This document shows positions 4,940 to 60,340 of a stretch of 64,000 nt of DNA, piece after piece (positions within the stretch are counted from its first letter, which is position 1; each line of letters starts with the position of its first letter). This DNA is from Patescibacteria group bacterium (GTDB lineage Bacteria; Patescibacteriota; Minisyncoccia; RBG-13-40-8-A). A program made the translations under genes and the position numbers. The stretch lies in contig JAZDGD010000009.1 in NCBI GenBank assembly GCA_043807255.1, positions 29,476 through 93,475 on the forward strand, in the 5' to 3' direction. A model generated the notes under the pieces. That model was not told where the DNA came from. It saw only the letters and a list, made by a program, of their open reading frames with translations, and did no database searches.

Positions 4940-5137
4940 AATACCCGAGGTCTGACCTCGGGTATTTCTGTATCTTATGAGGCTAAGCCTCGTAAGATAT
5001 AATCCTGATATCGGGAGGTTCGACCTCTAACGCCCCCCCGCATCAACACTTAATATTGGGAGGTCGAACCTCTTATTATGTGGGACGTGCGACGTCCCAC
5101 ATAAATACGAAACATACGGAGAACTGTTCTCCGTATC
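4940..5137. repeat. Array of six different GC-rich hairpins in tandem
   Basis: Hairpins: cccgaggtctgacctcggg (4945), cttatgaggctaagcctcgtaag (4975), gggaggttcgacctc (5013), gggaggtcgaacctc (5058), gtgggacgtgcgacgtcccac (5080), atacggagaactgttctccgtat (5115). Confidence 0.6.
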
Positions 5138-5173
5138 TTCTATCTGTCCACTATTAATGAGAATTTGTTTGTC

Positions 5174-5291
5174 ACTGAGACAATTTCGCAGGCAAAATGC
5201 ATGGTTTCGTCCCAACAAACATGTCGTGGACGAAATTTTGCCGAGAATTAGCACGGCCACTCGCTGGAGTGGCCGATGCGTGTCGACATGA
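5174..5291 (-). ncRNA. Conserved structured element, copy A, in the 3' region of rpsI (candidate ncRNA or cis-RNA element)
   Basis: About 75% identical to 52317-52422. Compensatory changes preserve three stems. The element ends 18 nt from the rpsI stop codon. Confidence 0.4.
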
Positions 5292-5309
5292 CAAATAAAT
5301 TCGAGTGCT

Positions 5310-6544: not shown

Positions 6545-7315
6545 TTACTTTTTCTTGGCTTTTTTTGTTACTTTTTTAGATTTTTTTTCTCCGACCTCGG
6601 TCCCGATCTTCATCGGGACAACGATTGGAGCGGGTGCGAAAACTCCAAATTGTTCAAGTAAAATTTCCGCTGCTCTATTAAATGCGTATTCTGGTTCAAC
6701 GCTACCGTCGGTTTCAATATCAATTTTAACTCTATTAAAATCGGTTTTATCTCCAACGCGCATATTCTCTACTTCATAATTAACCCTCTTTACTGGAGTA
6801 TAAATTGCATCTAAAGCAATTGCGCCAATTTCTAGTTTGTCTTTCTTTCTTTGTTCAACCGGAACATAACCTAACCCCGTCCCAATTTCAAGTTCCATTT
6901 CTAATTTTGCCTTAGCACTGGTGAGCGTTGCGATATGTGCATCTTTATTAACAACCTCAATTTCTGCGGTTGTTTTAATGTCTTTTGCCTTCACTTCTTT
7001 TTCTCCACTTGCCTTTAATTCTATTTTTATTGAAGGAATTTCTGCGTTTACCTTAAATCTTATTTGTTTTAAATTTAAAATTATTTGAATCACGTCTTCC
7101 AAAACATTGGGAATAGTAGAAAATTCATGACTTACTCCCTTAATCTTAACCGAAGTGATTGCAGCGCCAGACAAAGATGACAAAATCACTCTTCGAAAGG
7201 CGTTACCAATAGTTATGCCATAGCCGGGGTAACAATTATCTATTTCAAAAATTGCACGGTTATCGCCTTTTTTAATAACTTTCGGTTTTATTGGTAAAGA
7301 TATTTTGTGTTCCAT
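6545..7315 (-). CDS. rpoA: DNA-directed RNA polymerase alpha subunit, N-terminal domain only with a Lys-rich tail (no alpha-CTD)
   Basis: 256 aa with RpoA NTD motifs (GYGITIGNAFRRVLLSS-like). Ends in KKSKKVTKKAKKK. Bacterial RpoA is normally about 330 aa. Confidence 0.8.
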   Translation of the reverse strand: MEHKISLPIKPKVIKKGDNRAIFEIDNCYPGYGITIGNAFRRVILSSLSGAAITSVKIKGVSHEFSTIPNVLEDVIQIILNLKQIRFKVNAEIPSIKIELKASGEKEVKAKDIKTTAEIEVVNKDAHIATLTSAKAKLEMELEIGTGLGYVPVEQRKKDKLEIGAIALDAIYTPVKRVNYEVENMRVGDKTDFNRVKIDIETDGSVEPEYAFNRAAEILLEQFGVFAPAPIVVPMKIGTEVGEKKSKKVTKKAKKK

Positions 7316-7324
7316 ATAAATTAT

Positions 7325-7412
7325 TATTCAAATCTACAAATTGTTATGCGAATCTACGAATTATTCGTTGATTCGGATACAGATTCGTATCATTCGGATA
7401 ATGTATTAATTA
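7325..7412. repeat. Palindromic intergenic repeat, family 2 (rpoA leader); copies at 60245-60340 and, inverted, at 40935-41003
   Basis: Shared sequence cgaatctacaaatt..gcgaatctacgaattattcgttgattcggata...attcg.atcattcggataat. Confidence 0.6.
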
Positions 7413-7416
7413 AAAA

Positions 7417-8049
7417 TTATCTTGAATAAAATTCAATAATCATTGCTAGGTCAACCGGAAGTTCAACCTGTGCCCTGCCCGGAGCCCCATGAACAATTGC
7501 TTTAAATGTTTCACCCTCCTTGCTCTCAACTGAAAGCCATGACGGAATAGTTTGTTTTTTAATTTTTGCTTCCATGTCTTTAAATATGATCTTTTTTATA
7601 CTTTCTGGCCTGATTGCAATAACATCGCCCTTCTTAAGATGAATTGATGGAATGTCAACCCTTTTGTTGTTTAACAAAACATGACCATGGCTAACTATTT
7701 GTCTGGCCTTGGCCCTCGATCCGGCAATTCCTAATCTAAAAATAGCGTTATCTATTCTGGTTTCTAATTTTGCAATTAGAACATCGGGCACAACACCCTT
7801 TACCCTTGAAGCTTCTTCAAAATATTTTCTAAACTGTCTCTCGGTTATTCCATAAATTTTCTTAACTTTTTGTTTTTCAGCTAATTGAGCACCATATTCA
7901 GATAGAGCTGATTTATGTTTCTTTGCTTTCATGCCCGGAGGATATGGCTTTTTGATCATTGCGCACTTTACACTAAAACATCGCTCTTCTCGTAAAAAGA
8001 GTTTTTGCCCTGAACGTCTACATTTTTTACAAATTGGTCCTCTTAACAT
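7417..8049 (-). CDS. rpsD: 30S ribosomal protein S4
   Basis: 210 aa with the N-terminal Cys cluster and an S4 domain. Confidence 0.85.
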   Translation of the reverse strand: MLRGPICKKCRRSGQKLFLREERCFSVKCAMIKKPYPPGMKAKKHKSALSEYGAQLAEKQKVKKIYGITERQFRKYFEEASRVKGVVPDVLIAKLETRIDNAIFRLGIAGSRAKARQIVSHGHVLLNNKRVDIPSIHLKKGDVIAIRPESIKKIIFKDMEAKIKKQTIPSWLSVESKEGETFKAIVHGAPGRAQVELPVDLAMIIEFYSR

Positions 8050-8515: not shown

Positions 8516-8911
8516 TTAGGTTTTTTCGGACGATTTCTTTCGACCGCTTCCCATTGTTTTTCTTTGATTACCCCTAATTGTTCGATTGTTGGTTTTAGTA
8601 TTTTGTCCTCTTACTGGCAATCCCTTAATATGTCGGAGGCCACGATAACAACCAATTTCCTTTAATCGTTTTATGTTCATCATTTTTTCTCTACGTAAAT
8701 CTCCTTCAATCTTATATTTACCACTTCCCTCAATAATTTCTCTTAATTTGGTGCTTTGATTCTCGTTTAATTCTTTGGTTCTTGTGTCTGGGTTTATCCC
8801 TGCTTTTTTCAAAATTTCTTGACTTAAAACCAAACCTATCCCATATACGTAGGTTAAAGCAACTTCTATTCTTTTGTTGTCTGGGACATTTACCCCTGCG
8901 ATTCTTAACAT
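8516..8911 (-). CDS. rpsM: 30S ribosomal protein S13
   Basis: 131 aa, S13-like ([16 protein letters not shown]...). Confidence 0.85.
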
Positions 8912-9341: not shown

Positions 9342-11006
9342 TTAATTTATTTTAATTAACACCTTAATTCTGCCTTCTTTGTCTGGAACCTGTTTTACCC
9401 AAAACGGCCACAATACTATCTTCGCTGTTTCAATTTCTGCCAAAGACGAAAGATACGTTCTTGCCTCTGTTTCTGTTTTGCCAATTAAGTCCTTCCTGAT
9501 CTGATTGGCATCGAAATTCCAAACCGAATCTGCTTCTACGCTACAAATTAAATTAGAGCTACCCTTTTTAGAATCAAATTTAGATGTCTTATAGTCAATT
9601 TTGATTGTTGAAAAAAGCAAAGTTCTATTTTCAGAAATTTTATCAGCAACATTTTTTTCTAATAAATTCAGAACGTCCTGTTCTTTGAATGCCAAGCCAA
9701 CGGCCCTTACTTTCACCGTAACTGTAAACTTTTCTCCCGGCATATTTGCTTTAACGGTCGAAGACGATTCTGTGACTTCTAGTGATTGACTATCGCTTAA
9801 TAATTTCAAATCATTGGGAATAGTTCCCCGAAACTCTTGTGATGCCCTTTCTTTAAGTCCTACGGCAACAATATTTATTGCTCCAGTAATATCGTCCTGG
9901 GTTGCAACTTTCATTTTTCCTTTTGCTCCGCCAGTCATTGGTTGTGTCGATTTGCCGTAAAATGCACTATATTTTGGTGTTCCCTCAAAGCCGGGAATTT
10001 TAAAATCTGAAGGACCAATATTAAAATCTGCTCCCGCCTCATCTGCCTCAACATCTACTTCTTTACTGCTGGCAACAATTTTTCCCTCGTCGATAATTGC
10101 TCCGGGAATTGTAACCGTGGCAGTCAATCTAAAAATTTTGCCATCAGTTGATTTTAATCGAGTCGTTTTAACTAATGTTTGTGGGCTTGAACTATATTGA
10201 TTGTAAATAGTAATTTTCCCCTTAGCTTTTTCTGAAACATCCCTTTCTCCTGTACTGGGAAATTCTCTGCTCTCCATTTTTTCAACTTCAAAAAGTTGCC
10301 CAGGAATTGTTGCCTGATCAACGTTTATGGCACTAATATCTTTATTAACCGCTATGTCCGTTTCAAATTTAACGCTTTCTTTTTTAGGATTAATTACAAT
10401 TTGAGCATGCGGTAAAACAAAATAAACCACATATGCTAAGCCCAAGACGGCAATTAAAATTCCTAAACTTATTAATATTTTTTTTATGGGAATTCTAAAT
10501 TTTCTTGTTTTCTTTATTCTTTGTATTTTTTCTGGCAACGGCTCGGCAAAAACTTTTTCATCGGAAAATCTTTCTTTGTAGAAAAAATCATTTTCTGGCT
10601 GTGTTTTTATTTGTGGTTCAAATTCAAATTTTGGTTCTGGTTCAAAATTCTCAACCACCTCTTCTTCTTTTCTGGAATTAACAACGTCTGCCATGGTTCT
10701 TAGGTCAACAACCCTACCCATAATTTTGTCTGGTCTTTTAATCTGTGGTTGTCCGGCATCCTGGACTTCTAAAATATCAATCCCTGCCTGCATCGAAAGT
10801 TTTCTAATCAATCCATCGGCAGTAGAAATATAAACCTTTTTACCTAGAAATATTGATTCCTCTTTAAGAATTCTTAGATTGATAATACTTTTCAATGCTG
10901 CTGTTCCCGACGGAACAACCAAGGCAAGGTTAATGTCCTTGCTTAATTTGATATTATCAATTATCGAAAAAAACTCTTCGTTTGATTTTAAATAAAACCT
11001 CTCCAT
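9342..11006 (-). CDS. Hypothetical single-pass membrane protein (large extracytoplasmic domain)
   Basis: 554 aa with a TM helix around residue 180. Downstream of a PilM/FtsA-like gene. Confidence 0.45.
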   Translation of the reverse strand: MERFYLKSNEEFFSIIDNIKLSKDINLALVVPSGTAALKSIINLRILKEESIFLGKKVYISTADGLIRKLSMQAGIDILEVQDAGQPQIKRPDKIMGRVVDLRTMADVVNSRKEEEVVENFEPEPKFEFEPQIKTQPENDFFYKERFSDEKVFAEPLPEKIQRIKKTRKFRIPIKKILISLGILIAVLGLAYVVYFVLPHAQIVINPKKESVKFETDIAVNKDISAINVDQATIPGQLFEVEKMESREFPSTGERDVSEKAKGKITIYNQYSSSPQTLVKTTRLKSTDGKIFRLTATVTIPGAIIDEGKIVASSKEVDVEADEAGADFNIGPSDFKIPGFEGTPKYSAFYGKSTQPMTGGAKGKMKVATQDDITGAINIVAVGLKERASQEFRGTIPNDLKLLSDSQSLEVTESSSTVKANMPGEKFTVTVKVRAVGLAFKEQDVLNLLEKNVADKISENRTLLFSTIKIDYKTSKFDSKKGSSNLICSVEADSVWNFDANQIRKDLIGKTETEARTYLSSLAEIETAKIVLWPFWVKQVPDKEGRIKVLIKIN

Positions 11007-12512: not shown

Positions 12513-12639
12513 GGTACTCTCCTTTTCGCTTTTTAGCGATAATTTAATGTATCAAATTAAAAAAATTTCGTCAAGCGTTTGCAAACACAAACACCACATA
12601 AATACCATAAACACTATATCAATATTATAAACATTCTTT

Positions 12640-12675
12640 GTTTCCATTTTTGTACGGCCGTAATAAAATGGAAAC
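12640..12675. repeat. Nested-palindrome repeat, family A, 3' copy (gtttccatttttgtacggccgtaataaaatggaaac)
   Basis: 11-bp outer stem enclosing a tacggccgta inner palindrome. Lies 30 nt downstream of the stop codon of 12706..13266. Confidence 0.7.
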
Positions 12676-12705
12676 AAAATTATCTGTTAAAAAACATGAA
12701 CTATG

Positions 12706-13266
12706 TTATTCGAATCTTACTTTTTTAACTAAAAGAAAATCTACAAAAGATTTTAAATTATATTGTTCAATCAATTCTTTGGTTTCTTTCTCTGTGTCAT
12801 ATTGGCAAACCCAAATACTTTGTTGCATTTTTTTATATCCTAAATATTTCAATCCCCTCCTAAACCAATCCCTGTCTTTTCGCCTACTTTCCGATATGTC
12901 AAATAAAACCATTTGCCACTTTCTGTCTTTTCTTAGGTTATTGTCTGTCAATTTTAATTTTGTGATAAATAATTTTTCGAAACCTTTTGATGTAATTATT
13001 ACGGCCGATTTATCCTTCGCTCTTAACGTTTTCAAATAACCACTACTTTTTAACTTACAAACCGTTCCAGCAAATCTTCTTTTGCTTTTTTCCCTTTCGC
13101 GTTTCTTTTTGTTTTCATTTGTCCACTCGTCTCTGAATGTATTGAAGTCGGAAAAACGCAACCCTCCTCTTTCGGGAATAATTTTGCCAATTACGTCTTT
13201 TGTTTTATTTTTGAAATTATATAAATCCCAAAGAAATTGTTCGGTAAATGGTAATTTAAGTCTCAT
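12706..13266 (-). CDS. Winged-helix / Cas2-VapD-like fusion protein (paralog 1)
   Basis: The C-terminal half, KWQMVLFDISESRRKDRDWFRRGLKYLGYKKMQQSIWVCQYD, matches the Cas2 core pattern (hVhhhYDI..RR..h...L...G.RhQxSVFxC). The N-terminal half, CKLKSSGYLKTL...VIITSKGFEKL, looks like a winged helix. Confidence 0.55.
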   Translation of the reverse strand: MRLKLPFTEQFLWDLYNFKNKTKDVIGKIIPERGGLRFSDFNTFRDEWTNENKKKREREKSKRRFAGTVCKLKSSGYLKTLRAKDKSAVIITSKGFEKLFITKLKLTDNNLRKDRKWQMVLFDISESRRKDRDWFRRGLKYLGYKKMQQSIWVCQYDTEKETKELIEQYNLKSFVDFLLVKKVRFE

Positions 13267-13278
13267 AGAATATTATTA

Positions 13279-13315
13279 TGTTTCTATTTTATTACGGCCG
13301 TAATAAAATAGAAAC
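13279..13315. repeat. Nested-palindrome repeat, family A, 5' copy (gtttctattttattacggccgtaataaaatagaaac)
   Basis: 13 nt upstream of the ATG of 12706..13266. Differs from the 3' copy by a compensatory C/G to T/A change that keeps the outer stem intact. Confidence 0.7.
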
Positions 13316-13396
13316 AATTTGAATTTAATAATTAAAATTAATAAATCCCATAATTAATAAACGATTAAATTTATAAATCTTTCGATTATTAAAATT

Positions 13397-15160: not shown

Positions 15161-15199
15161 TGCTTAAATTATACAATAATAAAAAAAACAAATCCACTG

Positions 15200-15228
15200 T
15201 TGACAAAAATAATGGATATGGTACAATT
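15200..15228 (+). promoter_or_regulatory. Consensus sigma70-type promoter (TTGACA, 17-bp spacer, TACAAT)
   Basis: Exact hexamers with optimal spacing, read directly from the sequence. Confidence 0.6.
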
Positions 15229-15261
15229 ATATTGTCTTAAAAATTCTACTGGAGGTGTAAA

Positions 15262-15426
15262 GTGTTTAAAAAGAATTATTTTGTGATGCTGGAAGACGGC
15301 AAGATGATATCCGAACCCTTCGGATGGCGTGGCGTCCACAAGCAGGTCAAATTCCTGTTCGAGAAGGGAAAGACGTGCCGGGTCTTCAAGGAAAGAAAAA
15401 TCGGACTGAGGGTCAAAGTAGTATAG
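15262..15426 (+). other. GC-rich small transcription unit: sRNA or 54-aa small protein (GTG start, SD GGAGG)
   Basis: GGAGG lies 6 nt upstream of GTG. The reading frame VFKKNYFVMLEDGKMISEPFGWRGVHKQVKFLFEKGKTCRVFKERKIGLRVKVV uses GC-rich codons unlike neighbouring genes. The unit is bracketed by a consensus promoter and a strong terminator. Confidence 0.35.
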
Positions 15427-15455
15427 CTCCACCGACATCAGTTCTCGATCACAAC

Positions 15456-15492
15456 GGCCGATGCGGGCGAACCCGCATCGGCTTTTTTTATT
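15456..15492 (+). terminator. Intrinsic terminator (cggccgatgcgggcgaacccgcatcggc plus T8)
   Basis: Perfect GC-rich stem followed by a T tract. Confidence 0.7.
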
Positions 15493-15569
15493 TAACCCCT
15501 CCACACCTCCCCTTATCAAGGGAGGTTATTGTTTTTTGCCGAATAAAATAGAGGTGGCCCGTGCCACCC

Positions 15570-24150: not shown

Positions 24151-25532
24151 GATTATACAATACGCTAACCAGAAAAAAGGAAATTTTTAAACCCATTAAG
24201 AAGGGTTTTGTTGGTATTTATACTTGCGGGCCAACCGTTTATTCTTTTGCTCACATTGGGAATTTAAGAAGTTATGTTTTTGCTGATATTTTAAAAAGAA
24301 TTTTTATTTACAATAAATATAAAGTAAAACACGTAATCAATGTAACTGATGTTGGACATTTAACCTCTGATGCCGATGAAGGCGAAGATAAAATAGAAAA
24401 AGCGGCCTTGCGCGAAAATAAAAAAGCTGAAGATATCGCAAATTATTATTTTGGATTTTTCAAACGAGACCTAGAAAAACTTAATATTTTAAAACCAGAA
24501 ATTTATTGTAAGGCAACCGAACACATTAAAGAACAAATTGAGTTAATCAAAAAGCTTGAAAAAAAAGGATTTACTTATAAAACCTCTGATGGAATTTATT
24601 TTGATACATCTAAAATAAAAGACTACGGTAAGCTTGCACAATTAAAAAAAGAAGGGTTAATTGCTGGCAAGAGAATTGATTTTAAAGAAAAGAAAAATAT
24701 CACTGATTTTGCTTTATGGAAATTCTCCCCGCCTATCGGCGGGGCAAGCTTCTCTCTTAAGAGACAACAGGAATGGAAAAGTCCTTGGGGCGTTGGCTTT
24801 CCCGGCTGGCACATTGAATGCTCGGCAATGTCTATAAAATATCTCAGTGAACATTTTGATATTCATACTGGCGGGATTGACCACATTCCAATTCATCACA
24901 CCAACGAGATTGCCCAGTCCGAAGCAGCTACCGAAAAGAAATTCGTAAATTATTGGATACACGGCGAATTCCTTAATTTTAAAGGGAAAAAAGTTTCGAA
25001 ATCGAAAGGCGGGCTTTATACCGTTTCGGAGTTGCAAGAAAAAGGATTTAATCCCCTTGCATTTCGTTATTTAACATTTATCACTCATTATCGTGACCCA
25101 TTAAATTTTTCCCTAGAATCATTACAAAGCGCACAAGAATCATATAATCGATTAAAAAATATTATATGGGAGAACCGAGACAAAAGAACCAAAAAAGAGT
25201 ATTTGAAAGAATTTCAAAAAGCTATTAACGATGACTTAAATATGCCCAAGGCATTAAGCATTGTTTGGAAAATGGTACGAGACAAGAAACCCGCCCGCAA
25301 CGCCAGCAAGCTGTCTTGCTTGGCAGGCGAGGTGGACAAGGTTTTTGGATTGGATTTGTTAAAGAAAGAAAAGATAGAAATTTCTTCCGGCGTTGAGGAT
25401 TTAATCAAAGACCGCGAACAATCAAGAAAGAATAAGGACTGGCAAAAATCCGACGAGCTTCGTGACAAAATAAAATCCCTCGGTTATACCGTCGAAGACA
25501 CCCCCGAAGGACAAAAAATTAAGAAAATATAA
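24141..25532 (+). CDS. cysS: Cysteinyl-tRNA synthetase
   Basis: HIGN and KVSKSKG (KMSKS) motifs and the SPWG..GWHIECS zinc site. Confidence 0.9.
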
Positions 25533-30885: not shown

Positions 30886-30916
30886 AAATCTTACGAGGTT
30901 AAACCTCGTAAGATTT
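30886..30916. repeat. REP-like palindrome, copy 1 (aaatcttacgaggttaaacctcgtaagattt)
   Basis: Perfect 14-bp inverted repeat overlapping the transposase stop codon. Confidence 0.7.
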
Positions 30917-31610
30917 ATTCTAATGACAATTCTCTTGCGTCGTTTACTGCCATGTCCTTCAGCCATTTTTCTATATTTTGTTTGTATTTCCCATCTCCAC
31001 CAAACACTCCCAATAAAAATTCTCTATTTGTAATTGAAGGAAAGTTCTTTTTACCTGCGTAATCCAAATAACTAGACCAACGATAATTGCCTAAATATTC
31101 CATCGCTCCGTTATAATTATTTAGTTTTCTTGCTCGCCATTCCGGAAAACTGAGATCTAGTGGATTCAAATGAATATAATATGGAAGGTTTAAGAAATGA
31201 TTTTGTTTGTCGATTAAAATTGATTTATACGTACTCTGAAATAATGTTCCCCTTCTTTTGTATTTTTTATTGAATGACATCGTATAACCGGTTCCTAATT
31301 TTTGCATAAACCTAGAAATACCATTATCTTTTTTCTGTTTCAACAATAAATGATAATGATTTGGCATCAAACAAAATGCTAAAATTTCCACAAGCAATTT
31401 TCTCTCTTTAATCTTGCGAGGTTTAACCTCGTAAGATTCTAGGTCCATAGATTTATAATATATATTTTCTGCGGGTGCCTCATCGTTAAATTCATACAGA
31501 TCGTGAATAAAACGAAGATGGTCCTTGTCGTCTGCAAATATGTTTCTCTGTTCAACTCCGTGATTTAAAACGTGATAAATTTCATTATTTTCAAATTGTG
31601 GTTTTTTCAT
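30915..31610 (-). mobile_element. tnpA: IS200/IS605-type Y1 (HUH) transposase, REP-associated (RAYT-like)
   Basis: N-terminal YHVLNHGVEQRNIF, HUH motif PNHYHLLL, and catalytic Tyr context GTLFQSTYKSILID. Flanked by REP-like palindromes. Confidence 0.6.
31410..31438. repeat. REP-like palindrome, copy 2, inside the transposase CDS in-frame
   Basis: aatcttgcgaggtttaacctcgtaagatt, which encodes SYEVKPRKI. Confidence 0.65.
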
Positions 31611-31640: not shown

Positions 31641-31667
31641 GTTTACGAGGTTAAACCTCGTAAGATT
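31641..31667. repeat. REP-like palindrome, copy 3
   Basis: gtttacgaggttaaacctcgtaagatta. Confidence 0.7.
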
Positions 31668-31721
31668 AATTGTAACATAAAAATTGATATTTAGATATAA
31701 TTCTGCTATATTTTAACTAAC

Positions 31722-31794
31722 GGCCCCATCGTCTAGTGGCCCAGGACATCAGATTCTCATTCTGAAAACACCGGTTCAACTCCGGTTGGGGCTA
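31722..31794 (+). tRNA. tRNA-Glu (anticodon CTC)
   Basis: Hand-folded cloverleaf: acceptor GGCCCCA/TGGGGCT, anticodon loop TTCTCAT, T-loop TTCAACT. Confidence 0.7.
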
Positions 31795-31800
31795 AAACCA

Positions 31801-31833
31801 AAAATCTTACGAGGTTTAACCTCGTAAGATTTT
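31801..31833. repeat. REP-like palindrome, copy 4
   Basis: aaaatcttacgaggtttaacctcgtaagatttt. Confidence 0.7.
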
Positions 31834-31862
31834 ATAATACAACCGAATAATCAGAATTAAAA

Positions 31863-36874: not shown

Positions 36875-37486
36875 CTAGAGATTTGGCTCTTTGGCAGAAG
36901 CGAGGCCGATGCTACTGTCGTCGTTGGAGTCATCCCAGTCGATGATGCGGAGACCGTCCTTGTCGAAGATGCCGAGACTGAAAGAATCGCCATACGAATT
37001 CACATTCGAAGTTCTGACCCAGATGCGTTTAAACAAGCGTTCATTGTTCTCCAGACAATTCAGCATGATGGCATAGGCCATTTGTCGAACCATGGGAACA
37101 ACTTCGTTGGTCTGGAGCAGATGCTGCTGTTTGCCCCAGTTCTTTTTGCGGGAATTGGGAACTTCTGCTTTCCGAATCAGACGCCACTGCGGAGTTTCCT
37201 GCTCCTCGGCCCAGCCGTACGATTCGCAAAAGCCTAAATGCTGGTCGCAGAATAGACCATCCTTCACTCTGCCACGAACATCAAGAAGCGAGATCCCGAA
37301 GTCGGCAATGAGGATATGGTCGTTCTTCGTTGCTTCCAACACCTCTTCGGTAAACGGAATCACCGAAAACGCCTTGGCGATTTCATTGGTCATCGAGACA
37401 TTGAAACGCCGGACGGCTACGTCTACGCCGAGAAGATTACGACCCATGATTTCACGAACAGAATTGAGTTTTAAAAACTTGCTCAC
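36875..37486 (-). CDS. GC-rich hypothetical protein of atypical composition (probable GTG start with SD AAGGAG; alternative ATG at 37447)
   Basis: Region 36880-37480 is far more GC-rich than its flanks. The 203-aa ORF VSKFLKLNSVREIMGRNLLGVDVAVRRF...HILIADFGISLLDVRGRV... has balanced amino-acid composition. Overlapping plus-strand ORFs look spurious. Confidence 0.45.
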   Translation of the reverse strand: MSKFLKLNSVREIMGRNLLGVDVAVRRFNVSMTNEIAKAFSVIPFTEEVLEATKNDHILIADFGISLLDVRGRVKDGLFCDQHLGFCESYGWAEEQETPQWRLIRKAEVPNSRKKNWGKQQHLLQTNEVVPMVRQMAYAIMLNCLENNERLFKRIWVRTSNVNSYGDSFSLGIFDKDGLRIIDWDDSNDDSSIGLASAKEPNL

Positions 37487-37607
37487 TCTAAATCTCCTTT
37501 TAATATAAATTTTATGGCTCTCTCCGACTTTTACGTCGTAGCTCGCCATAATTTCAAAGGACAAATACAATTCATATATACCATATCGCAAAAATCTTGT
37601 CAAATTA

Positions 37608-37648
37608 TTTCTTGTCGCCATTAGAACGCCATGGCGTAATTATGGCGT
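37608..37648. repeat. Nested-palindrome repeat, family B, 3' copy (tttcttgtcgccattagaacgccatggcgtaattatggcg)
   Basis: Inner perfect palindrome acgccatggcgt with an outer cgccat/atggcg stem. Lies 31 nt downstream of the stop codon of 37680..38255. Confidence 0.7.
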
Positions 37649-37679
37649 ATCAATTAATTGAGCAATATTGGCCAACCGA

Positions 37680-38255
37680 CTAATTGATTTTAAATGTTTC
37701 TCTTAACTCTCTATCATCTCCTATTCTGTCGGCCACGATTAATCTAATTTCGTTTTCGGTTAATCCAAAAAAATCTCTCAACAAATCGATTTCATCTTTA
37801 CAATTAAATGGATGGATCCAAACACTTTTTTGAATTAATTGAAATCCCAACTCTTTTAATTTTCCGCGAAAAGCATCTCTATGGGCCTTTTTCAAATGTG
37901 CAATATCAAACATAACCAATCTCCATTTCTTGTCCCATTTTTTCGGTTTACCGATCTTTAATTCGTCTATCTGCATCCAACCAGCTTTTCTCTTGCCTTT
38001 GTCCGTAAGCGAAATATGCATGCCACCTTTTTTGATTTCTATCTTTATCAATCCTTGTTTCTTGAGTTTATAAAAATTGTCTTGCACCTTTTTGTTGCCA
38101 TATCTTTTAAATTGCTTCAATCCCCTCATTAAATTTCGTATAAAATAAGGAGAACTAGCCGCGACGACAACTGCACCAGAAATTAATAGTGCTATCAAAA
38201 TATCTTTAACAATTTCAGATTTTGGTTTTTTAAAATAATATTTATATTTTGTCAT
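37680..38255 (-). CDS. Winged-helix / Cas2-VapD-like fusion protein (paralog 2, with N-terminal TM helix)
   Basis: KKWRLVMFDIAHLKKAHRDAFRGKLKELGFQLIQKSVWIHPFN is Cas2-like. FYKLKKQGLIKIEIKKGGMHISLTDKGKR is wHTH-like. Aligns along its length with paralog 1. Confidence 0.55.
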   Translation of the reverse strand: MTKYKYYFKKPKSEIVKDILIALLISGAVVVAASSPYFIRNLMRGLKQFKRYGNKKVQDNFYKLKKQGLIKIEIKKGGMHISLTDKGKRKAGWMQIDELKIGKPKKWDKKWRLVMFDIAHLKKAHRDAFRGKLKELGFQLIQKSVWIHPFNCKDEIDLLRDFFGLTENEIRLIVADRIGDDRELRETFKIN

Positions 38256-38268
38256 ATTTGTAATTCAC

Positions 38269-38310
38269 TTTCTTGTCGCCATTAGAACGCCATGGCGTAA
38301 ATACGGCGAC
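38269..38310. repeat. Nested-palindrome repeat, family B, 5' copy
   Basis: ctttcttgtcgccattagaacgccatggcgtaaatacggcgac, 14 nt upstream of the ATG. Confidence 0.7.
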
Positions 38311-40927: not shown

Positions 40928-40934
40928 AAGATAT

Positions 40935-41003
40935 TATTATTCGAATGATGCGAATTCTTATCCGAATCAACGAATTCGTAGATTCGGATATTTTATTTGT
41001 AGA
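40935..41003. repeat. Palindromic intergenic repeat, family 2, inverted copy (Clp ATPase leader)
   Basis: tatccgaatcaacgaattcgtagattcggata is a near-perfect 32-bp palindrome and the reverse complement of the 7325/60245 copies. Confidence 0.6.
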
Positions 41004-43987: not shown

Positions 43988-44050
43988 GTTAATGTGAATG
44001 CAATGTTCCCTGCCCGCAACGCCAGCAAGCTGGCTTGCGTGGCGGGCGGG

Positions 44051-59197: not shown

Positions 59198-60229
59198 TCA
59201 CTTAATAAGTTTTCCGCTTTTAATTACATGTTCAACCAAAGTTGATGAATAACCCCATTCATTATCGTACCAGGCCATAACTTTTACTAAATCGCCATCA
59301 ATAACTTTTGTAAATCCCAAATCAACAATAGCAGCGGTAGTAATGCCAATAAAATCCGAGGAAACCAATTGTTCACTAGTTACACCTAAAATCCCTTTCC
59401 AGTGTGGTTTTTTAGATGCCTCAATTAAAATATTATTAATTTCCTCAACTGAAGTTTTTCGGTTGGCTACAAAAGTTATGTCCGCCAAAGAAACCGTTGG
59501 CACCGGAGTCCTGATTGCTAGACCATCAAATACGCCTTTTAAGTTTTTTACAACCTTCGTAACTGTAATCGCTGCTCCCGTAGAAGACGGAACCAAACTA
59601 ATTGCTCCCGCCCTGCCCCTGCGCCAATCCTTCGCATCTGGACCATCAACAATTTTTTGCGTTGCCGTATAAGCATGGGTTGTATTTAAGACTGCCTTTT
59701 TTATCCCTGGATTTTCTGATAAAACCGCCATCACCGGTGCAACTGCATTGGTTGTGCAAGAACCGTTAGAAGTAATGTTTACTCGCGACATATCTTTTTC
59801 ATTAATCCCTAAAAGCACGGTTCCGCCAAGCTTAAAGCTCTCGTCGTCGTCTTTTGATGGCGCAGTGATTACCACTCTCTTGGCTCCAGCTTTTATGTGC
59901 GCAGAACTTCCCTCAAAAGAATCAAAAAATCCTGTTGCCTCAACAACCACATCTATTCCCAATCTTGCCCATGGCAATTTTATTGGATCTTTTTCTTGAA
60001 AAAAATCAATTTTTTGATTATCAATAATTAATTTTTTTTGCTTTAAATCAACACTAACCCTGTGGTCATATGCACCATAAACGCTATCGTGTTTTAAAAG
60101 ATAGGCCAAATTTTCTAAATCAGCCAAATCATTAATTGCCACGATTCTTAAATCGTTTCGTTCATGGGCTATCCTTAAAAAACTTCGACCAATTCTCCCA
60201 AATCCACTTATTGCTACTTTCGTAAACAT
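59198..60229 (-). CDS. gap: Glyceraldehyde-3-phosphate dehydrogenase
   Basis: NGFGRIGR and SCTTN motifs. Confidence 0.9.
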   Translation of the reverse strand: MFTKVAISGFGRIGRSFLRIAHERNDLRIVAINDLADLENLAYLLKHDSVYGAYDHRVSVDLKQKKLIIDNQKIDFFQEKDPIKLPWARLGIDVVVEATGFFDSFEGSSAHIKAGAKRVVITAPSKDDDESFKLGGTVLLGINEKDMSRVNITSNGSCTTNAVAPVMAVLSENPGIKKAVLNTTHAYTATQKIVDGPDAKDWRRGRAGAISLVPSSTGAAITVTKVVKNLKGVFDGLAIRTPVPTVSLADITFVANRKTSVEEINNILIEASKKPHWKGILGVTSEQLVSSDFIGITTAAIVDLGFTKVIDGDLVKVMAWYDNEWGYSSTLVEHVIKSGKLIK

Positions 60230-60244
60230 ACAATTAAATATTCG

Positions 60245-60340
60245 AATCTACAAATTAGTATACGAATCTACGAATAATTCGTTGATTCGGATAAATATTC
60301 GCATCATTCGGATAATATTACTTATATTGTAATTATACCA
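60245..60340. repeat. Palindromic intergenic repeat, family 2 (gap leader)
   Basis: cgaatctacaaattagtatacgaatctacgaataattcgttgattcggataaatattcgcatcattcggataat. Confidence 0.6.

Follow-up and report, generated by a model that had tools for sequence, protein, structure and literature searches.

We analyzed a 64-kb stretch of contig JAZDGD010000009.1 from a Patescibacteria genome, referred to below as the window, to which all window-wide searches were confined. On its reverse strand lies a GC-rich gene of 203 codons whose product is very probably a C-type-lectin-fold variable protein (VP) of a clade of diversity-generating retroelements (DGRs) restricted to the Patescibacteria (candidate phyla radiation, CPR), present here as a stand-alone copy. 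An earlier note on this DNA had described a roughly 600-bp gene of this length with a good Shine-Dalgarno sequence and a terminator hairpin of its own, following on the same strand the second of two paralogous winged helix-turn-helix (wHTH)/Cas2-like genes (paralog 2) and its 3' repeat. Each of these elements was recovered: the opening, internal and closing peptides quoted in the note match the translation of an intact open reading frame (ORF), AAGGAG is found at 37499-37494, and a repeat copy (37608-37647) lies between the two genes. As the note had stated, paralog 1 lacks an equivalent gene; no second homolog was found in the window. The gene and its immediate signals are as follows:

36875..37486, reverse strand: coding sequence (CDS) of the lectin-fold VP homolog; 203 codons, GTG start, TAG stop; GC 49.8%, GC at third codon positions (GC3) 61%
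36878..37003, reverse strand: variable region (VR) equivalent, the last 42 codons (VNSYGDSFSLGIFDKDGLRIIDWDDSNDDSSIGLASAKEPNL), supported by an nhmmer match and an NNY imprint (Y, pyrimidine)
37457..37483, reverse strand: junction of an in-frame deletion of 168 nt (56 codons), from the alignment with a syntenic relative, L048
37494..37499, reverse strand: ribosome-binding site (RBS) AAGGAG, with a 7-nt spacer to the GTG; kept in L048
36819..36859, reverse strand: intrinsic-terminator-like hairpin and T-run; 13 bp, 7 of them GC; 16 nt past the stop codon; near-identical in L048
37565..37593, reverse strand: putative promoter, picked by eye; TTGACA (37593-37588), 17-nt spacer, TATATA (37570-37565)

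Start calls for this gene compete, giving proteins of 224 amino acids (NCBI), 248 amino acids (ORF beginning with ATG) or 203 amino acids (GTG at 37486-37484). We favor the last, because the syntenic locus L048 has the same RBS and an ATG at the homologous position. A promoter scanner that demands a T at position 6 of the second hexamer called no consensus promoter for the gene. In the terminator scan downstream of the gene, the stem-loop was placed at 36859-36829, followed by ATTTTATTTA. At the 3' end of the VR, the conserved stretch encoding IGLASA is present, which may correspond to an initiation-of-mutagenic-homing sequence, and the hairpin beyond it could double as the GC-rich inverted repeat known 3' of some DGR VRs; its T-run makes it equally a terminator.

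The structure model of the 203-residue protein is confident and has the fold shared by C-type lectins and the formylglycine-generating enzyme (FGE), with the variable segment predicted at the C-terminus. The RNase H-like or nucleotidyltransferase-like fold at which the earlier note had guessed was not borne out, as structural similarity to neither was found. By sequence, the protein had no match in Pfam, NCBIfam, PHROGs, a PDB profile search or Rfam. A word-indexed protein search returned only 14 relatives, and a combined pattern and tblastn scan of JGI metagenomes at least 337, from which 80 loci were retained. A degenerate VR/template repeat (TR) DNA-pattern scan of genome contigs was narrow and gave mostly chance matches in GC-rich genomes; its real matches were only L020, L023, and L028, and the metagenome-assembled genome (MAG) to which the window belongs was not recovered by it. 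In the family alignment 22 columns are invariant, and the window protein conforms to every one of them; its closest relatives (L046, L047, and L105) are 65-66% identical to it overall, and 69-70% over the core outside the VR.

That this family consists of DGR variable proteins follows from cis-encoded TRs, from adenine-biased mismatches between TR and VR, and from VR-only differences between samples. At locus L001, genes for bAvd and for a reverse transcriptase (RT; RVT_1) stand next to a homolog (P0002, 65% identical), whose final ~120 nt recur 423 nt further downstream; where the two copies differ, the downstream one mostly has an adenine. This VR/TR pair with its bAvd and RVT_1 genes therefore constitutes a DGR whose variable protein is the homolog. 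The same combination of target, TR, Avd, and RT was found in L023 (Saccharibacteria) and in L028 (a Patescibacteria MAG). Among the 54 non-redundant loci with enough downstream sequence to be assessed, 32 have a TR in cis, and both avd and RT lie inside the flank in 17 of these 32. The TR is typically 120 nt long, lies 270-500 nt past the stop codon, is 78-91% identical to the VR, and is usually followed by avd and RT. Summed over the TR/VR pairs, TR adenines take 469 of the 566 TR-to-VR mismatches (83%), while A makes up only ~25% of the TR bases. L046, L047, and L105 represent one strain in three samples: the non-VR part of the CDS (~620 nt), the intergenic spacer, and the TR show little or no difference among them, and yet the VRs differ at 18 or more sites. 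Variation confined in this way to the VR directly indicates that the closest relatives of the window protein are still being diversified.

In intact members, downstream of the gene come the ~120-nt TR, avd on the other strand, and the RT gene. The RT-Avd complex would copy TR RNA with random misincorporation opposite adenines, and the resulting cDNA would take the place of the final ~40 codons of the VP gene, thereby randomising ~11-14 AAY-templated codons whose residues are predicted to line the face with which the lectin fold binds its ligand.

The relatives offered several further observations. Unlike L105 and L046, L047/L001 has a consensus VR (8612-8740) in which one nucleotide of the TR is missing; the C-terminus is frameshifted as a result, and P0002 ends in ...STGLTTAAAALSVSLPPGNPEPLIFERLNPCSS. 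At the level of the population consensus, this seems to be an allele that was produced by the DGR and is probably non-functional. Tandem pairs of VP genes with one common downstream TR are present in L054, L066, L074, L089, and L102, and the VRs of the two copies in L089 are identical. Fragments of RT genes lie directly 3' of the VP gene in L063 (1204-1506) and L092 (6742-6936) at loci where TR and avd were not detectable; these may be partly deleted DGR cassettes, intermediates on the way to orphan targets. In L002, rplK and nusG are separated by a family member encoded on the opposite strand, and the ~130 nt directly upstream of these two genes (7605-7735 and 9538-9666) are direct repeats of 87-94% identity that take in both start codons (ATGGCAAAA); they look like a duplicated leader made when the ~1.9-kb segment arose.

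By description, this family resembles clade 2 of the cellular DGRs, a Patescibacteria-restricted clade whose targets lack transmembrane segments and known domains (Roux et al., 2021; PMC8144416), and the DGRs of earlier CPR surveys. The hosts are cellular Patescibacteria, the proteins are small and without signal peptide, transmembrane segment or recognised Pfam domain, there are no viral relatives, and in most relatives the C-terminal VR is templated by a TR beside avd and RT. The window copy departs from this description in lacking a cis TR, avd, RT, and an N-terminal domain of ~56 amino acids.

Variable proteins with PDB structures were compared as well. Among them, besides TaqVP (PDB 5VF4), is Mtd of Bordetella phage BPP-1 (PDB 1YU0), a trimer-forming component of the phage tail fibre with 381 amino acids; the window family is cellular, is ~255 amino acids long, and differs in its N-terminal domain. 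TvpA (Treponema denticola variable protein 1, PDB 2Y3C) is a spirochaete surface lipoprotein with a DGR in the same genome. It shares only 16% identity with the window protein, with no homology detectable by sequence, and the window protein, unlike TvpA, has no export signal visible in its sequence.

None of the components that accompany the VP gene in its DGR-linked relatives was found in the 64 kb. A profile built from 27 TRs of the family matches the window exactly once (37008-36893, E = 2e-12), and this match is the gene's own VR; neither self-blastn nor the nhmmer search with this profile revealed a cognate TR. The RT and Avd of L001 had no tblastn match, and family HMMs of both proteins, run against all six-frame ORFs of the window, gave a best E-value of 0.013 (10 bits), which is noise. 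No RT with the V1686 locus-tag prefix of the MAG was among the best 120 of at least 7878 RT matches, a result that is uninformative about the MAG. Since the searches for TR, RT, and Avd were all negative, we regard the window gene as a stand-alone copy, a situation it shares with the 22 of the 54 assessable loci that have no TR in cis.

The VR of the window gene retains the family scaffold G..F..G.F...GL.....W.D......IGLASA. We examined the ten VR codons at which AAY occurs in at least 50% of the TRs; in the window gene these read GAT, AGT, ATC, GAC, CGC, ATC, GAC, AAC, GAC, and AGC. All ten conform to NNY while only one still encodes Asn, against a third-base pyrimidine fraction of 0.56 in the core. 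We take this NNY pattern to be a fossil imprint left by adenine mutagenesis. Set against the TR of L105, which is heterologous, the window VR matches at 79% of the non-A positions, against 75% in the core, and this comparison is uninformative. Three pairs of near-identical, TR-less strains (L069/L071, L072/L078, and L002/L073) have identical VRs, which mildly favors the view that orphan copies are static.

A close relative of the window is provided by L048, a JGI contig whose MraZ, RsmH, and FtsL proteins are 98.6%, 94%, and 86% identical to those of the window, and in which the order RBS, lectin gene, terminator, mraZ, rsmH, and ftsL is the same. The lectin gene must therefore have occupied this locus already in the common ancestor of the two, and a chimeric assembly is unlikely, since an independent contig with the same gene order excludes a chimera at the downstream junction. 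Relative to L048, the window gene has lost the N-terminal helical domain found there and in most family members; the deletion preserved the RBS and the start position, a GTG taking the place of the ATG. N-terminally short forms occur only among TR-less copies (5/26 vs. 0/38; one-sided Fisher test, p ~0.009).

The lectin CDS of the two loci shows a dN/dS ratio of 0.21 and is hence under purifying selection; its synonymous divergence (dS 1.24-1.44) is well above that of mraZ, rsmH, and ftsL (0.35-0.53). At the nucleotide level, the cores match at 70% of positions and the VRs at 55%, whereas the intergenic DNA next to the gene is 82% and the neighbor genes are 86-93% identical. Outside the VR, the window protein is moreover closer to the DGR-linked L046, L047, and L105 than to the syntenic L048 (58%). 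Because the CDS is more diverged than its flanks and closer to DGR-linked genes than to L048, it is plausible that the window CDS was replaced by a divergent allele or paralog, which would be the simplest reading of these comparisons. VP cores are not generally more diverged than their flanks, since core identity equals or exceeds flank identity in most locus pairs; the excess seen between the window and L048 is thus specific to this locus.

The composition of the gene is as atypical as the earlier note had claimed for both GC content and codon usage, and the sliding GC profile that it had proposed as a check was far from uniform. No other 612-nt stretch of the 64 kb reaches the GC content of the CDS, 0.498 (mean 0.347, standard deviation 0.034 for 612-nt windows), and the change in GC is abrupt, falling at the CDS bounds. 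By codon position the values are 0.54, 0.35, and 0.61, the last to be compared with a GC3 of 0.29 in host ORFs. The remaining GC peaks are the tRNA cluster and two ORF-poor segments (~15170-15560 and ~5010-5305).

This deviation is shared by the whole family. In the 14 loci that have a target, RT, avd, and enough host ORFs, mean GC/GC3 values are 54/69% for the VP core (VR excluded), 37/37% for RT, 36/39% for avd, and 40/39% for host ORFs. All 49 non-redundant loci compared show a positive offset for the VP gene, on average about +14 points, in hosts of 30-50% GC. This offset does not depend on an active cis DGR, an explanation we rejected since loci with and without a cis TR have the same offset (0.145 and 0.136; p = 0.64), and the window, at +0.149, is typical. 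A specific depletion of adenine was likewise rejected, as both A and T are low at the third positions of the VP core (A3 0.13 vs. 0.29; T3 0.18 vs. 0.31). Moreover, GC3 stays high (0.51-0.59) in the window/L048 pair although synonymous sites are saturated (dS >1), so that the composition is maintained rather than a fading trace of a donor. We conclude that GC richness is a trait of VP coding sequences throughout the family, that it is actively maintained, and that it is not a donor signature; synonymous-site selection and GC-biased conversion are candidate causes. We found no account of this offset in the part of the DGR literature that was covered.

These data have to be weighed against other explanations, the most obvious being the one suggested by the earlier note, namely that composition marks a recently acquired gene from a GC-rich donor, perhaps cargo or partner of a PaaX/Cas2-like cassette. 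The gene does adjoin a repeat-flanked neighbor and belongs to a system associated with mobile elements, the excess divergence of its CDS suggests allele replacement, and GC deviation of DGRs has been treated as evidence for horizontal transfer (Wu et al., PMC5758913). The aberrant GC content thus stood, but the conclusion drawn from it did not: the same offset in every locus, alongside RT and avd genes of host-like composition, and the presence in L048, whose MraZ is nearly identical, of a homolog in the same position between the same RBS and terminator, mean that composition is no proof of recent arrival. There are also no relatives in phage or IMG/VR collections. The pattern matches in GC-rich genomes lacked a tblastn match to the protein, and the real ones were from Patescibacteria only, which, given the narrow pattern, is weak evidence against GC-rich donors. 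The proposed partnership fails as well, since a PaaX-like neighbor is present at 0 of 84 homolog loci, the kind of co-occurrence by which the note itself had wished to judge it. Taken together, we consider a recent foreign origin quite unlikely. That the protein is instead an enzyme of the FGE/EgtB/SenA type, to which its fold would lend itself, is highly improbable: neither the window protein nor 14 family members matched any FGE-sulfatase or EgtB model in Pfam or NCBIfam or any such PDB sequence, and the members of that family (SUMF2, PDB 1Y4J; EgtB; SenA; PvdO) are enzymes without a hypervariable, TR-templated C-terminus.

The current state of the gene is a closer call. It might still be diversified in trans by an RT, Avd, and TR encoded elsewhere in the genome, outside the 64 kb, as DGRs with remote targets are known and are missed by cis-based surveys (PMC8144416). 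The intact ORFs and VR scaffolds of the 22 TR-less loci would fit such a remote target, as would the NNY imprint, the IGLASA-coding 3' scaffold, and the GC-rich hairpin of the window gene and its proximity to DGR-linked relatives. The empty window and the static VRs of three independent strain pairs speak against it, and the VRs of the window and L048 differ at synonymous sites of the scaffold too, so that they were not recently overwritten from a shared TR; we therefore regard ongoing diversification in trans as possible but somewhat unlikely. Unlikely, to a greater degree, is a decaying remnant left behind by loss of a DGR cassette and heading for pseudogenisation. Deletion of the N-terminal domain, the restriction of truncated forms to TR-less copies, the static VRs, and the negative promoter scan would all be expected of a relic. 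Yet the in-frame deletion spared the RBS and start of an intact ORF, dN/dS is low over a dS above 1, every family-invariant residue is present in a confidently modeled protein, the elevated GC3 has been retained in an AT-rich genome, and the gene has a terminator of its own. On balance, we lean towards a gene that is expressed as a non-secreted binding protein of fixed specificity.

The upstream neighbor of the lectin-fold gene, and the repeats around it, are arranged as follows:

37680..38255, reverse strand: wHTH and PaaX_M/Cas2-like gene (paralog 2; PF20803, E = 2e-19)
37608..37647, no strand assigned: copy 1 of a palindrome-rich 40-nt direct repeat (CGCCAT-N5-CGCCATGGCG-N5-ATGGCG), 15 nt upstream of the putative -35 hexamer of the lectin gene
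38269..38308, no strand assigned: copy 2, 95% identical, directly upstream of the PaaX-like start (38255)

The adjacency of paralog 2 and the lectin gene is not conserved, since tblastn with both window paralogs found no homolog of either at the 84 family loci; the only remaining local link is the 40-nt palindromic repeat that precedes both genes. This palindrome is possibly an operator of the adjacent PaaX-like regulator. Paralog 1 (12706..13266) is bracketed by a different palindromic repeat of its own (12638-12703 and 13252-13317). The paralog-specific repeats are ~39-66 nt long, with one copy just upstream of the start codon and the other between the stop codon and the next gene, a layout that suggests regulator-specific operators rather than shared ends of a mobile element.

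Other repeated or GC-rich sequences were noted elsewhere in the window. The two ORF-poor segments mentioned above have a GC content of ~0.44-0.46 against 0.35; an Rfam search with a threshold as loose as E <= 1 matched neither of them, and they may encode structured RNAs that are not yet annotated in this Patescibacteria genome. An intergenic element of 45-90 nt (...ATTCGTTGATTCGGATA...ATTCG...) is present in three copies with 82-91% identity, two in direct (7313-7402, 60227-60316) and one in inverted orientation (40932-40976); the latter is directly upstream of the start of a ClpB-like gene (40927), and the element may be a shared regulatory site. A palindromic unit of ~25-33 nt (TTACGAGGTTAAACCTCGTAAGATT) occurs five times (4975-5007, 30891-30923, 31414-31446, 31643-31675, and 31807-31839), four of these copies clustering around tRNA-Glu (31722-31794). 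Finally, a GC-rich 40-nt sequence (CCCGCCCGCAACGCCAGCAAGCTG.CTTGC.TGGC.GGCG) is found at 25290-25329 and 44009-44048, 18.7 kb apart and 90% identical in an otherwise AT-rich genome.

With its assignment, a hypothetical and foreign-looking gene becomes a recognisable part, the lectin-fold VP of a DGR clade abundant in the ultra-small Patescibacteria. About 40% of this family (22/54 loci) lies away from any retroelement and is thus out of sight of cis-based DGR surveys. Atypical GC content is here a stable family trait, at variance with the host-like RT and avd genes alongside, and this calls for caution before recent horizontal transfer is read from it. The GC offset and the excess divergence bounded by the CDS are simple, testable observations on the evolution of DGR targets. 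We tentatively suggest, as a proposal that may well turn out otherwise, that a gene-bounded process beyond VR mutagenesis keeps the whole VP CDS 10-25 GC points (about 30 points in GC3) above host, RT, and avd genes, with or without a cis DGR, and at the window locus produces the sharply bounded, approximately threefold excess of synonymous divergence. Recurrent GC-biased conversion or replacement among paralogous VP copies may be responsible, or strong selection on synonymous sites. If such a process operates, orphan or remote DGR targets could be recognized by their composition alone, and an undescribed layer of DGR target biology would be indicated.
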